The notes under the pieces were generated by a model. It searched no databases and was not told the DNA's origin. It saw only the letters and a list, made by a program, of their open reading frames with translations. Shown here piece by piece: positions 36,312 to 52,865 of a DNA stretch of 54,442 bases. Location: the IMG/VR virus record IMGVR_UViG_3300013005_000022, positions 1 through 54,442 of that record; one strand, written 5' to 3'. Positions within the stretch are counted from its first letter, which is position 1. Every line of letters starts with the position of its first letter. A program made the position numbers and the translations under genes. The DNA is from a virus (lineage: Duplodnaviria > Heunggongvirae > Uroviricota > Caudoviricetes).

Positions 36312-37718
36312 ATGTCAAAATTACAAACCGCTTTCGAATCTGCTTCTTTGAAAGAGAGAGTTTCAACTCTACTTGAGAGCATTGATAGAAATAACACATC
36401 AAAATTTATTGCAGAGCGTATTCTTTCTAGATTTGCTACTGTAGAAGTTTCTGAAGGATCTTCAACTGCATCTGATGCTTATACTTATTTAATGGGTAAA
36501 GGTGTTGATCAGGCTAAAGCTAAAGGAGTTGCTAGTGCCTCTATCAATGAATCAACTTCAAGAGTTGCTAATCCTTACTTAATCGAAAAAGTAAACATTA
36601 TGAGAACTGCAATCAAAGAATTGTCAGCTTACTCATGGATGCCAGTTATTAACGATTACATCAAAGAATGTAATAACATACTAACTGAAAATGAATTTGC
36701 TATCTTAGTTGAATCCGTTATTTTCGATCTAGAAAACCACAGAGAATCTAAATTCTACTCAAAAGCAATCTCTAAACTTCGTGAATGTTCAAATGCTGAA
36801 AATCCAGTATTTGCAGTATCTGAAGATCTTGATTCAGAAAAATGGATTCCTCTAGTTAAACAATTAGTAGAATATGCTGAAAAATCTAAAGGATCTATCG
36901 GTGGAAGTGATAATAACTACAAAGTAAGCAAAGTTTACTCTCCGGTTATTGTTAACGAAGAAGAAAACACTTACACATTCTATTCAAATGGAAAAATGTT
37001 AACTCTTAATGGTGAAGAAATCACTGAATCGGAAGTTACACCAGATGAAAAATTCAAAAGCCTACTTAACTTAATGGAATCATCTACTATCGTTAAAAAC
37101 GGTATGAGATTCTACCCTAAAGCTGGATCTATATTAGACGTTACTTTCGAAGCAGAAGGAACTAAAATCACAGTTGATGGTAAATTAGTTGAGGCTGCTA
37201 ACTTAGAAACTCACTTACTTAAAACCGGTCTTTTCAAATTCAACGAAATCGAAAAAGTTAATGTTATTAACCGTGCAATCGCTGAAGGTGCAAATATCAA
37301 AGAAATGGATTTCGCTTACAGAGTTGAATCTAAAAAATTCAAAGGTGTTTCTACTACGGTATTCACTATTGCTGAAAATATCTTCATTCAAAAGGTTAAT
37401 CCTGCAATGAAAGTTAATGAATTCGTTAAAGCTGAAAGCGCTGAAGCTGCAGTTTCTATCGTTAAAGAATTTATGAACTATGATATCACTAATTCTTTAA
37501 CTAAATTGATCGAGGCTGAAGAAGTTGAGAAAGCTAAAATAGCTGAAGAAAATTCTAAAATTGAAAGAAAAATTCAATTCTTACAAGAGAAATTAGAAGA
37601 ACTAAATAGAATTGATAAATTATCAATTTACGATGTTGAGCATATAAATAAAGCGAAAGCTATCGTAGAGAGCGAAATTGCTACTCAAACCGAAGAGCTT
37701 ACAAAAAAAAACTCTTAA
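36312..37718 (+). CDS. Hypothetical (probably head-associated) protein ending in a slippery A9 run
   Basis: 468 aa, C-terminal coiled coil. Ends ACA AAA AAA AAC TCT TAA. Confidence 0.7.
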   Translation: MSKLQTAFESASLKERVSTLLESIDRNNTSKFIAERILSRFATVEVSEGSSTASDAYTYLMGKGVDQAKAKGVASASINESTSRVANPYLIEKVNIMRTAIKELSAYSWMPVINDYIKECNNILTENEFAILVESVIFDLENHRESKFYSKAISKLRECSNAENPVFAVSEDLDSEKWIPLVKQLVEYAEKSKGSIGGSDNNYKVSKVYSPVIVNEEENTYTFYSNGKMLTLNGEEITESEVTPDEKFKSLLNLMESSTIVKNGMRFYPKAGSILDVTFEAEGTKITVDGKLVEAANLETHLLKTGLFKFNEIEKVNVINRAIAEGANIKEMDFAYRVESKKFKGVSTTVFTIAENIFIQKVNPAMKVNEFVKAESAEAAVSIVKEFMNYDITNSLTKLIEAEEVEKAKIAEENSKIERKIQFLQEKLEELNRIDKLSIYDVEHINKAKAIVESEIATQTEELTKKNS

Positions 37719-37906
37719 CCGAAACGAGTGACAATTATGTTGTTGCTACTCTAGCTGAACCATTTAATGGATTGGTTAAAGGTGATTCAGTAAAGATGGA
37801 TGCTTTAGAATTTACCAAAAAGGGTGATGATGATATGATCGATATTATCTTGCCTGATGGAAGTAAATCTCAAGCGAAAAAAAGAATACTGTTCGCTAAA
37901 ATTTAA
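37712..37906 (+). other. Start-less 64-codon -1 frame, candidate frameshift extension of the 36312 gene
   Basis: Open frame LLTETSDNYVVATLAEPF...ILFAKI* begins right after A AAA AAC and stops 3 nt before the next ATG. No start codon in that frame between the stop at 37649 and the slip site. Confidence 0.7.
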
Positions 37907-37909
37907 GAC

Positions 37910-38266
37910 ATGGCAATATACGTAAAACCAAAAGAACTATACGAAGAAATTTGTATTTCACTAGAGCAAAAGAAATTGACGCCAAAGGCTGAAAAGATGC
38001 TCATATTAATAGCTGAAAGAGCTAATCAAAAGCTAAGATATGAAAATCCAATGGACCGAGAGGATTGCATTGCTTTTGCTCTTTTGGATTTGTTCAAATA
38101 CTGGGATCGATTCAAACCAGAGAAAACCACAAATGCATTTGCATTTTATACACAAATTGCAAAAAATGCATATGCTAAAGGATGGAATAAACTACATCCT
38201 GGTAAATACAAAGGAACATTATCGCTTGATGGCGGTATGGATCGTGAAGGTATTTACTCAATATAA
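37910..38266 (+). CDS. gp55: Late-transcription sigma factor (T4 gp55-like), unusually short
   Basis: RY....DREDCI..A..D..KYW.RF.PEK..NAFAFYTQIAKNAY matches gp55 region 2. Confidence 0.8.
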   Translation: MAIYVKPKELYEEICISLEQKKLTPKAEKMLILIAERANQKLRYENPMDREDCIAFALLDLFKYWDRFKPEKTTNAFAFYTQIAKNAYAKGWNKLHPGKYKGTLSLDGGMDREGIYSI

Positions 38267-39625: not shown

Positions 39626-39928
39626 ATGAAAAACTTAATGTCTTTTGACGAATATGTCGTTAACGAAGCTGCTAAGAATGATGCTGCTGGTTTCAACCCA
39701 GAAAAAGAAACTACTAGCGACGAATTCAACCAAGAATTAACTCCTGGTAAAAAATACAATGTTAAAAAAGGAGAAGAAACTTCTCTTTGCATTTATCAAG
39801 GAAACACTGATGGTGTTTATGTATTCAATCCAGAAGCTAAAGAAGAAGGTGTAGTTACTGCTCCATGTGAATACACTGAAGCTGAACTTGATGCTGCTAT
39901 GAAAGCTGGTGAAATCACTGCTGCTTAA
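39626..39928 (+). CDS. Putative internal head protein (one copy of L.PG..Y...YQG..G..IFN domain)
   Basis: MKNLMSFDEYVVNE leader. Confidence 0.7.
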   Translation: MKNLMSFDEYVVNEAAKNDAAGFNPEKETTSDEFNQELTPGKKYNVKKGEETSLCIYQGNTDGVYVFNPEAKEEGVVTAPCEYTEAELDAAMKAGEITAA

Positions 39929-39949: not shown

Positions 39950-40522
39950 ATGAAGAATCTTAAAACATTTGCTGAATTCGTATTAGAATCTCAGGAATTT
40001 GATCCTGCTAAAACGACTGATATTGATGTTCTTTTACCTGCTATTAAATCTGCTTCAGAGCTAATGCCTGGTAAAGAATACGTTATCAATCTTGACGGTA
40101 AGACTCATGCCAATATGATGTATCAAGGTGTATCTGATGGTAATTACATCTTCAACTCTGAAGATATGAAAACCACATTAAACCTTAATACTGAACAAAT
40201 CAGTGGTGCCGTTTCAGTTGGAGGAGTTCAACAAGTAAACGAATCTAAATCTTATAAAGGAAGAGAAGTTTTCCCTAATTGGATTAATCCTAGTAGAGAT
40301 TTTGGTGCTCCAGTTAGTAAGACAAAAGATCTTAAACCTGGTGCTGAATATATCCTTTGGGAACCTGGAATGGACGTTTGGCAAGCTGAATGGATCTATC
40401 AAGGTTATACCGGTGGAAAACATATATTCAATGATTCTAATAAAGAAGCAGATCCTATGGTATTCACTCAATCTGAATTAGAAGAATACATTACAAGTGG
40501 TGACGTTATAAAGCAAAACTAA
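39950..40522 (+). CDS. Putative internal head protein (two copies of the same domain)
   Basis: MKNLKTFAEFVLE leader. LMPGKEY...YQGVSDGNYIFN and LKPGAEY...YQGYTGGKHIFN. Confidence 0.7.
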   Translation: MKNLKTFAEFVLESQEFDPAKTTDIDVLLPAIKSASELMPGKEYVINLDGKTHANMMYQGVSDGNYIFNSEDMKTTLNLNTEQISGAVSVGGVQQVNESKSYKGREVFPNWINPSRDFGAPVSKTKDLKPGAEYILWEPGMDVWQAEWIYQGYTGGKHIFNDSNKEADPMVFTQSELEEYITSGDVIKQN

Positions 40523-43466: not shown

Positions 43467-45371
43467 ATGAGTCAAAAATATTTGCTCGTACTGGAAAGAT
43501 CCTCTTCTGAATTAGACATCAAAACAGAAGGTGATAATTACGTTCTAGAAGGAATCTTTACAGAGATCGGCGTTAAAAACAAAAACAATCGTATTTACGA
43601 TGAAAAAGAAGTTCTTCCTCACATAGATGAACTTTTACAAAAGGTAAAAGGGAGTAAACTTTTAGGAGAATTAGATCATCCAAAATCTTTTGAAGTTTCT
43701 TTAAAAAATGCATCACATGTTATTGAAGCATTAGATTACGACAAAAACACCAAAAAAGTAATGGGTAGAATTCGTCTACTTAATACTAGTGCTGGTAAAG
43801 AAGCAAAAGCATTAGTTGATGCTGGTATTCCTTTACATATTTCTAGTCGTGCTGCTGGTGTAGTTGAGAATAATGGTCACGTTAAAATCAAAAAAATGTT
43901 TACTTACGATTTAGTTGCAGATCCTGGATTTGCTAATGCTGAATTATCAAGAGTAAATGAAGCATTTGGATTTGAGATGGATGATACATTAGGACTTTAT
44001 GAAATACCTTATGATTCTAAGTTAGCTGAGTCTTTCGAAGATCATGATAAAATTGATGAAAACAAACAAACTCAAAACATAAACAAATCTTCAAAAATGA
44101 ATACAACGGAGAACATTTCAGTTGAAGATTTTAACGAATATACAAAAATCGTTAAAAACGAAATTGAAAACCTTAAAAAACAAATCGCTGAGAGTAACAC
44201 TGATGCTGTAACAGAGAGTAATGAATCTTTGGTTAAGTATACCGAAACTATCGCAAAAAGAGTAAATCAAATCCAAGAAAACCTAGGTTCTTTAAAAGAG
44301 AATTTCGATCACTTGGTATCACACAATGATTACATCGTAGAAAACCTTGAAAAGGTTAAAGATTACGCTGAAATGGTTGGTGAGAAATCAAATCAAGGAA
44401 TTAACTATTCAGAAAAACTTGCTGAATCAGTTGACCACTTAATTGAGTACACTAAAATGGTTGCTGAAAAAGCAGATCATGGAATCTCTTATACTGAGAG
44501 AATCGCTGAATCTCTTGATTCTTCAATCGAATATCAAAACCACGTTACCAAAGAAGTTAATGAGCGTTTTGCTTACCAAACTTACATCAACGAACAAGTT
44601 GATAACATCATTTCCCATACAGATTATATCGTTGAAGGTTGTGATTCTATTATCAAGTACACTGAGTACTTAAAAGAGAACCAATCAAGTTTAACTGGTT
44701 ATATGGACTATGTAGTTAAAGGAATTAACGAAGGAAAAGTTATTACTAACGATCCTACAGACGATAATAAATCAGAAAACGGAAACGAAGATGATTCTAA
44801 AGTAAATGAAGGTGCTGATGCTACTGCTTCTACTGCTACAACTGCTGACGAATTTGAAAAAGAAATTAACTCTAAAGTTGATGCTATTTTAGAATCCGCT
44901 AAAGCTCAAAAAGATGAAGTTAAAAAATCTAAAATGCATTTCTTTAATTTCTTAGCAGAATCAAAAAGAAACGAATTTGAAGCGTTAAATCCTGAAATGC
45001 AAGAAAAAATCGTTGGTCTTTTCGAGTCTACTAAATGGTACGGTTCAACTGATGCTAATAACATTTGGGAATCTGCTTTCGCTAAACCAGTTGCTAAAAA
45101 TGATTGGTTAGCTAATATGCCAAATCGTTATGCTGAAGCTTGGAATTCATTAAACGAATCACAAAAGAATGCTATTAAAGCTCAAGCTTCGGTAAGAGTT
45201 CTTGATACACAATATCAAATCGATTCTTTCTGGTCATCTAGAGATTTAAGAGTTACTAAAGTAGAATCTACTACTCCTGTTGCTCCAATCAACGAATCAT
45301 CTAAGTACGAAACTCCAACTGAATACATGGATACTGTAGCTGCTGAATTAAAAAGAAGATTCAAAAGATAA
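43467..45371 (+). CDS. gp21: Prohead protease (gp21-like) fused to scaffold/core protein (gp22-like)
   Basis: LEGIF...N.NNR.Y, GELDHP, ISSRAAG, YDLVADP protease motifs, then about 470 aa of acidic coiled coil. Confidence 0.88.
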   Translation: MSQKYLLVLERSSSELDIKTEGDNYVLEGIFTEIGVKNKNNRIYDEKEVLPHIDELLQKVKGSKLLGELDHPKSFEVSLKNASHVIEALDYDKNTKKVMGRIRLLNTSAGKEAKALVDAGIPLHISSRAAGVVENNGHVKIKKMFTYDLVADPGFANAELSRVNEAFGFEMDDTLGLYEIPYDSKLAESFEDHDKIDENKQTQNINKSSKMNTTENISVEDFNEYTKIVKNEIENLKKQIAESNTDAVTESNESLVKYTETIAKRVNQIQENLGSLKENFDHLVSHNDYIVENLEKVKDYAEMVGEKSNQGINYSEKLAESVDHLIEYTKMVAEKADHGISYTERIAESLDSSIEYQNHVTKEVNERFAYQTYINEQVDNIISHTDYIVEGCDSIIKYTEYLKENQSSLTGYMDYVVKGINEGKVITNDPTDDNKSENGNEDDSKVNEGADATASTATTADEFEKEINSKVDAILESAKAQKDEVKKSKMHFFNFLAESKRNEFEALNPEMQEKIVGLFESTKWYGSTDANNIWESAFAKPVAKNDWLANMPNRYAEAWNSLNESQKNAIKAQASVRVLDTQYQIDSFWSSRDLRVTKVESTTPVAPINESSKYETPTEYMDTVAAELKRRFKR

Positions 45372-52780: not shown

Positions 52781-52865
52781 GTCGGAATATACAGATTAAC
52801 ATCAAAATGTTAATAACTTTTTTAAAAAAAATGACTAAAAATTTTTTTATTTACGAAAAATGTAT

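Follow-up and report, generated by a model that had tools for sequence, protein, structure and literature searches.

A conserved nine-adenine run in a head-module gene of T4-like phages: a candidate recoding site, predicted to append a small SH3-like domain that lacks a start codon and leader of its own

Slippage of bacterial RNA polymerase on runs of about nine or more A or T residues is known from Thermus dnaX (A9), tssM1 (A11) and Shigella spa13 (PMC5009743, PMC3711429, PMC4256274). Here we describe such a run in a large, uncultured tailed phage (Caudoviricetes) from a lake, within the 54,442 nucleotides (nt) of IMG/VR record IMGVR_UViG_3300013005_000022 (the window), where an open reading frame (ORF) of 468 amino acids (aa) ends in nine A's and a stop codon and is followed by a 64-codon -1 frame with no start of its own. 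Comparison with relatives shows that this run, A9, and the frame behind it are conserved and under selection, and the run is best explained as a recoding site. In Citrobacter rodentium tssM1 and Yersinia pseudotuberculosis tssM3 (Gueguen et al. 2014, PMC4256274) a poly-A run likewise stands directly before a premature stop codon, slippage gives access again to a C-terminal domain found in frame in homologues, and each gene has two length variants, as proposed here; those cases differ in that the run is A11 rather than A9, the gene belongs to a bacterial secretion system and slippage was shown experimentally, whereas the evidence here is comparative. Thermus thermophilus dnaX (tau/gamma; cited in PMC5009743 and PMC3711429) shares the nine A's, slippage and two products, there in a set ratio and with no RNA structure needed, but its long form is the zero-frame product that slippage truncates, whereas here slippage would extend the protein. 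T7 gene 10A/10B and lambda G/GT (PMC5009743) are phage structural-module genes with a shift site near the stop codon and a minor, C-terminally extended form; unlike the present nine-A homopolymer, which lies in an unrelated gene family, they shift by ribosomal slippage on G GUU UUC or G GGA AAG heptamers. T4 internal proteins are targeted to the prohead by a 10-residue N-terminal leader (PMC3012670) and are cut by gp21 after L/I-X-E (PMC9026906). Relatives of the present locus place the same domain behind a 10-12-residue leader (MKLPSFEQWLNE, then A...), whereas in the window the domain has no leader and hangs on the upstream protein via the frame change, its cleavage and packaging being predictions.

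The 468-aa ORF (36312..37718; all features of the locus lie on the + strand) would be the zero-frame short product and belongs to a family of T4-like phages that is kept across relatives. Its 3′ end reads ACA AAA AAA AAC TCT TAA and the protein ends in ...TKKNS. The A9 run, the candidate slip site (37703..37711), takes in the third base of the preceding Thr codon and overlaps a zero-frame X XXY YYZ heptamer, A AAA AAC (37706..37712), which is the alternative site for a ribosomal -1 shift; the TAA stop follows at 37716..37718. A preliminary description made from the DNA letters had pointed out this arrangement and had stated that the -1 frame stays open for 64 codons, has no upstream start and fills the gap to the gene at 37910, all of which was confirmed. 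The -1 frame has no stop between 37652 and 37903 and terminates at 37904-37906, which leaves 3 nt to the ATG of the sigma factor gene; no ATG, GTG, TTG, CTG or ATH codon occurs in it between 37652 and a TTG at 37772 (extension residue 21). Counted from the CTC at 37712, the extension (37712..37906) consists of 64 codons plus TAA, reads LLTETSDNY...LFAKI, and would give a long product of 531 aa. Termination-reinitiation was rejected because there is no start codon near the TAA of the 468-aa ORF.

We compared the 3′ end of the ORF among relatives of the phage. The results showed that the 16 nt formed by the nine A's and CTCTTAA are unchanged in seven diverged lineages, from many samples and with 68-98% protein identity, while the flanks vary; the CTCTTAA is identical in every relative of the clade. 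The relatives with A9 include L001-L004, L009 and L010 (about 90% protein identity), L021/L022 (93%), L020 (78%), L006-L008 (72%) and L029/L030 (68%), and at least 25 distinct full-length proteins ending in ...KKNS appear in the cluster listings, drawn from JGI, ENA, Logan and NCBI sources. Directly before Lys-Lys the lineages use ACA, TCA or GCA (Thr, Ser or Ala), always a codon with a final A, and such codons account for only 27-39% of the Thr, Ser and Ala families in this genome. Given that an A-ending codon is kept through Thr, Ser and Ala, the whole nine-A run appears to be maintained, not the heptamer alone. The run length is thus kept among diverged relatives, synonymous positions included, with a single contig carrying A10, and the nine A's inside coding sequence fall within the run-length criterion for poly-A/T slippage sites (about 8-9 nt or more) taken from PMC3711429 and PMC5009743. 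The window covers the first 54 kb of a phage contig of 160,448 base pairs (bp; 34% G+C), in which this is the sole A-run of nine or longer, against about 14 expected under a third-order Markov model; there are five runs of A8, so that runs of eight or longer total six against about 37 expected. Both counts indicate that long A-runs are avoided in the contig except at 37703-37711. Two of the five A8 runs directly abut an ATG start (window 52824-52831 and contig 55323-55330) and may reflect A-rich translation-initiation leaders. A pairing of AAGAG with CTCTT flanking the nine-A run was rejected on reading the sequences, since it is broken in L006.

The -1 frame was then compared in the same relatives. 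An alignment of homologues had been suggested in the preliminary description, and it revealed that the A-run and stop are conserved together with a downstream -1 frame under purifying selection. Over six lineages the extension has a ratio of nonsynonymous to synonymous substitution rates (dN/dS) of 0.08-0.24 at dS 0.4-2.0, a constraint equal to that on the final 200 codons of the main ORF (0.07-0.43); in its other two reading frames the ratio is about 1-2. Substitutions are concentrated at third codon positions of the extension (e.g., 8, 5 and 26), and its sole indel is 3 nt long, in frame, and located 5′ of the residue-21 TTG. In the -1 frames of the long ORFs of this genome there are 0.119 stops per codon, and a length of 84 codons, as observed here, is attained by none of 4642 stop-free runs. 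An open frame of 84 codons is thus not expected by chance, and this, together with the strong purifying selection and the occurrence of A9 in many independent assemblies from different sources, speaks against the locus being an artefact or a decaying remnant, i.e., either a homopolymer sequencing error where the gene has A10 or the dead remains of the neighbouring gene after a deletion. One A10 contig does exist, and relatives show the domain to have been part of a separate gene whose start and leader were lost here; even so we regard an artefact or remnant as very improbable. On these comparisons the extension is very probably a real, expressed protein domain.

A search with phmmer of 1.84 billion representatives found the domain in 28 proteins, the match spanning extension residues of about 3-64. 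In most of them (134-355 aa) it ends no more than a few residues short of the C-terminus, and in five of the 28, which are 634-4057 aa long, it forms repeated internal stretches. Neither Pfam nor PHROGs holds a family for the extension, the domain is single-copy in the contig, and a narrower version of a scan with the domain alignment returned already known loci plus one new locus only. An AlphaFold (AF2) model built on the alignment from the 28-protein search reached a mean predicted local distance difference test score (pLDDT) of 88, with residues 1-6 disordered and strands at 9-14, 26-30, 42-46 and 52-56. Its best PDB matches are all SH3 domains, with template modelling (TM) scores of 0.6-0.69 and weak E-values (0.17 or worse). 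On this model the extension probably folds as an SH3-like small beta-barrel, comprising extension residues 9-64 (37736..37903). The model also bears on whether the extension might be a separate small gene, translated alone from the TTG at 37772 (44 aa) or the ATG at 37796 (36 aa), as gene callers annotate it. Strand 1 (residues 9-14) lies 5′ of both the TTG (residue 21) and the ATG (residue 29), and a product of this kind would lack that strand of the barrel. The residue-29 Met is invariant within the clade, in keeping with such a start, but the residue-21 TTG is TTA in L001/L009, selection and the in-frame 3-nt indel extend 5′ of the TTG to the A-run, and homologous domains align from extension residue 3-7 onward. 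The only stand-alone entry of 44 residues (P0034) is the gene callers' TTG-start call. A separate gene is therefore highly improbable.

A different length of the run was found in one relative. Contig L011 (Ga0256341_1006331, IMG 3300024556), of the 72% lineage, has A10 and one continuous ORF of 509 aa. The preliminary description had regarded such a relative as a sign of a homopolymer error; the relative was indeed seen, but A9 is present in at least 25 distinct sequences of many samples, which rules out an error in the window. The AF2 model of the 509-aa fusion (pLDDT 87.8) shows a low-confidence linker at residues 450-452 followed by the barrel, and its confidence indicates that the fused form is coherent. 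This contig, together with the fact that poly-A tracts are slippery for DNA polymerases as well (PMC3711429), would fit a phase variation acting at the DNA level only, in which replication slippage switches the run from A9 (short form) to A10 (fused form) and back, with only A10 genomes expressing the extension. A10 was found in only one of about 30 distinct sequences, and the quality of that contig is doubtful. Over 1896 nt, contigs of two sibling samples (Ga0256337 and Ga0256331) share 99.9% identity, yet one of them has an additional A in an A6 run, and this insertion frameshifts a small leader-plus-domain gene (L016:2877-3101 vs L018:984-1217). The sole A10 contig comes from the same project series; contigs of that project thus carry single-A insertions, which could be RNA-derived, erroneous or real, and the A10 status of L011 is accordingly uncertain. 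In addition, A9 is the consensus in every lineage and dominates across a dS of about 1, and selection constrains the extension no less than the main ORF, which argues against expression only from rare A10 genomes because such constraint would be hard to keep if the extension were silent in the prevailing genotype. We therefore consider phase variation at the DNA level alone an improbable explanation.

The preliminary description had proposed two products, of 468 and about 531 aa, made by a ribosomal shift or by polymerase slippage, and this is supported by the A-run and stop in seven lineages, by selection on the -1 frame and by the occurrence of the domain in frame elsewhere. On these comparative grounds the gene likely yields two isoforms through an event at the RNA level, at either the polymerase or the ribosome. 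A programmed -1 frameshift by the ribosome, with tandem slippage of tRNAs on A AAA AAC (37706-37712), would lead to the same 531-aa product with the junction ...KKN-LLTE. The heptamer is identical in all lineages and stands in the correct frame two codons before the stop, a geometry that resembles T7 gene 10 and lambda G/GT, where the shift site lies a few codons before the stop (PMC5009743); the sliding of ribosomes reported for homopolymeric AAA codons (PMC4363877) would also favour it. A conserved or significant stimulatory structure 5-9 nt downstream is lacking. The weak hairpin noted earlier at about 37726-37751 exists, but no significance could be attached to it: it starts about 14 nt 3′ of the site, has a z-score of -1.31 with 24 of 200 shuffles folding as well, and its register differs among relatives. 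Bacterial sites do not all need a stimulator. A_AAA_AAC is also reported to shift far less readily in E. coli than A_AAA_AAG (PMC5009743), and the ribosomal model does not require the two A's 5′ of the heptamer, which are kept through three different preceding codons. The contig has no phage tRNAs able to affect Lys or Asn decoding. Taken on its own, a ribosomal shift is possible but rather unlikely.

We favour slippage of RNA polymerase over a ribosomal shift because the whole nine-A run is kept through three different preceding codons, because there is no significant or conserved downstream structure, because A_AAA_AAC is the less shift-prone heptamer while nine-A/T runs are established slippage sites, and because long A-runs are otherwise depleted in the genome. 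In this mechanism standard decoding would yield the 468-aa form ending in ...TKKNS, and the host RNA polymerase would slip on the nine A's and add one A in a fraction of the transcripts. On an A10 transcript the ribosome would enter the genomic -1 frame and make the 531-aa form, ...TKKK-LLTE-TSDNY..., with its 60-residue SH3-like domain. Three observations weigh against this reading: the heptamer A AAA AAC is also present in the zero frame, so that ribosomes may contribute; the conservation of the ninth A is seen through three codon changes only; and the A10 contig L011 exists, i.e., a change of length at the DNA level also occurs or is mimicked. We infer from the comparison that slippage occurs and is mainly transcriptional, and we give about even odds to A9 being a recoding site for two proteins, of 468 and 531 aa, that acts mainly through transcriptional slippage. 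A single junction peptide would tell polymerase slippage (...TKKK-LLTE) from ribosomal slippage (...TKKN-LLTE).

How the domain came to lie in this position can be read from more distant relatives. In those of about 45-50% identity the 468-aa homologue bears a different in-frame C-terminal domain, GKEYxIxG...YQGxxDGxHIFN, and the SH3-like domain is encoded by a separate gene between the homologue and the sigma factor gene, in which a T4-like capsid-targeting leader with L-N-E at its end is followed, sometimes after a middle domain, by the SH3-like domain. These leader-plus-domain genes encode 74 aa in L016 and L019 (MKLPSFEQWLNE-AKAPDSYVNATV...), 169 aa in L012 and 194 aa in L015. In L017, a 33% relative, a 442-aa homologue is followed by a leader-plus-domain gene of 75 aa. 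In LR756500.1, a 462-kb phage and the sole relative that a search of phage GenBank entries returned, the domain is fused in frame in a 617-aa protein and the sigma gene follows. Directly 5′ of the gene for this 617-aa homologue there is a 411-aa ORF (L005:1191-2426) whose cysteine-rich C-terminus, by eye, resembles a TnpB/IS605 OrfB-type protein. The GKEYxIxG...YQGxxDGxHIFN domain, a second small shuffled one, also occurs once or twice in the leader-bearing window ORFs 39626-39928 and 39950-40522 and forms the in-frame C-termini of homologues of roughly 50% identity (P0008-P0033). Judged against these arrangements, the domain in the window clade has lost its start and leader and is reachable only from the upstream ORF across the A-run.

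The junction of the two parts carries a candidate processing site. Extension residues 2-4 (37715..37723) read L-T-E in the window, and LTE or LIE in all clade members, within the disordered junction. The earlier suggestion that LTE is a gp21-type cleavage site fits the observation that V/I/L-N-E directly precedes the same domain in paralogous proteins and aligns with LTE/LIE, and the sequence at the junction is likely a site of the prohead protease of the T4 gp21 type (L/I-X-E). A gene for a gp21-like protease is present at 43467..45371 (phrog_207, E 4.6e-43); its ORF encodes 634 aa, of which the first approximately 378 residues match protease families, while the C-terminal 250 residues could be a fused scaffold. 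About 18 ORFs of the contig start with a leader like that of T4 internal proteins, M-K-x-I/L-x-x-F/Y-x-E-F-V/I-N-E, of which seven are in the window (6971, 11173, 35531, 38276, 39626, 39950 and 50752) and 11 lie beyond it; so many leaders suggest that the phage packages an unusually large number of cargo proteins. The extension in the window has no N-terminus of its own, while the genes in the orthologous slot (L016, L019, L017, L012, L015) do have a leader. Since it has no leader, the extension could work like cargo only if the upstream protein is itself packaged. The phage gp21-like prohead protease would probably cut at the junction L-T-E; if it does, the 468-aa protein would serve, in place of the lost leader, as a carrier taking the small domain into the prohead, and the protease would free the 60-residue domain inside the head. 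A tentative extension of this idea, to which we give less than even odds, is that the slip site is a dosing device for capsid cargo, the SH3-like protein being loaded only as the slippage extension and released in the prohead by the protease. If that is true, the frequency of slippage on A9 would set the copy number of the cargo per virion.

We infer from genome context that the 468-aa protein is head-associated. Its family is present in neither Pfam nor PHROGs. The AF2 model of the 509-aa relative shows that the family fold is helical in its N-terminal part and beta-rich in its middle domains, with an antiparallel helical hairpin at the C-terminus. A Foldseek comparison of this model with the PDB gave no meaningful match (TM 0.18 or less); in VIA-align the match was limited to the generic helical hairpin at residues 381-451, and in BFVD the matches were uncharacterised phage proteins only (e.g., of Tenacibaculum phage PTm1). 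On the basis of these structural relatives in Tenacibaculum phages, the host is presumably a member of the Bacteroidota. Residues 13-15 of the family read L/M-K-E/D in the sequences and are conserved; they could be a propeptide site.

The genes of the window are all on the + strand, in the order replication/recombination, a gp15-like gene, a block of small proteins, portal, gp21-like protease and major capsid protein. The gene downstream of the extension (37910..38266; 118 aa) encodes a gp55-like late sigma factor (phrog_234, E 7.8e-12); it occupies the same position in all relatives and serves as a synteny anchor outside the recoded gene. Relatives of about 90% identity, L002 (IMGVR_UViG_3300009158_000031) and L010 (Ga0209500_10000005), are contigs of 254 kb and 266 kb, so that the phage genome is probably well over 200 kb and the 160-kb contig partial. 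No terminator or promoter scoring above shuffled sequences was found within the extension. Inside the 468-aa ORF, about 55 nt 5′ of the A-run, TATAAATA at 37644-37651 equals the T4 late-promoter consensus. It was rejected as the promoter of a separate transcript, since the position reads TATAACTA in L006 and TATAATTA in L020 and the match is therefore probably incidental; the first ATG 3′ of it, at 37737, is out of frame on reading the sequence.

The comparison thus places a conserved nine-A run, a probable recoding site, in a head-module gene of T4-like phages, a setting in which programmed frame changes are outside the textbook picture. As far as our literature searches show, neither this gene family nor a frame change that takes the place of a targeting leader has been described; the class of mechanism is well known. 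Gene callers split the locus into a 468-aa gene and a meaningless ORF of 36-44 aa, or leave a 190-nt 'gap', and if the two-product reading is true, the real long product is absent from the annotations of this phage group. The relatives, taken together, also document how a capsid protein with a gene and leader of its own probably became the frame-shifted appendage of its upstream neighbour.

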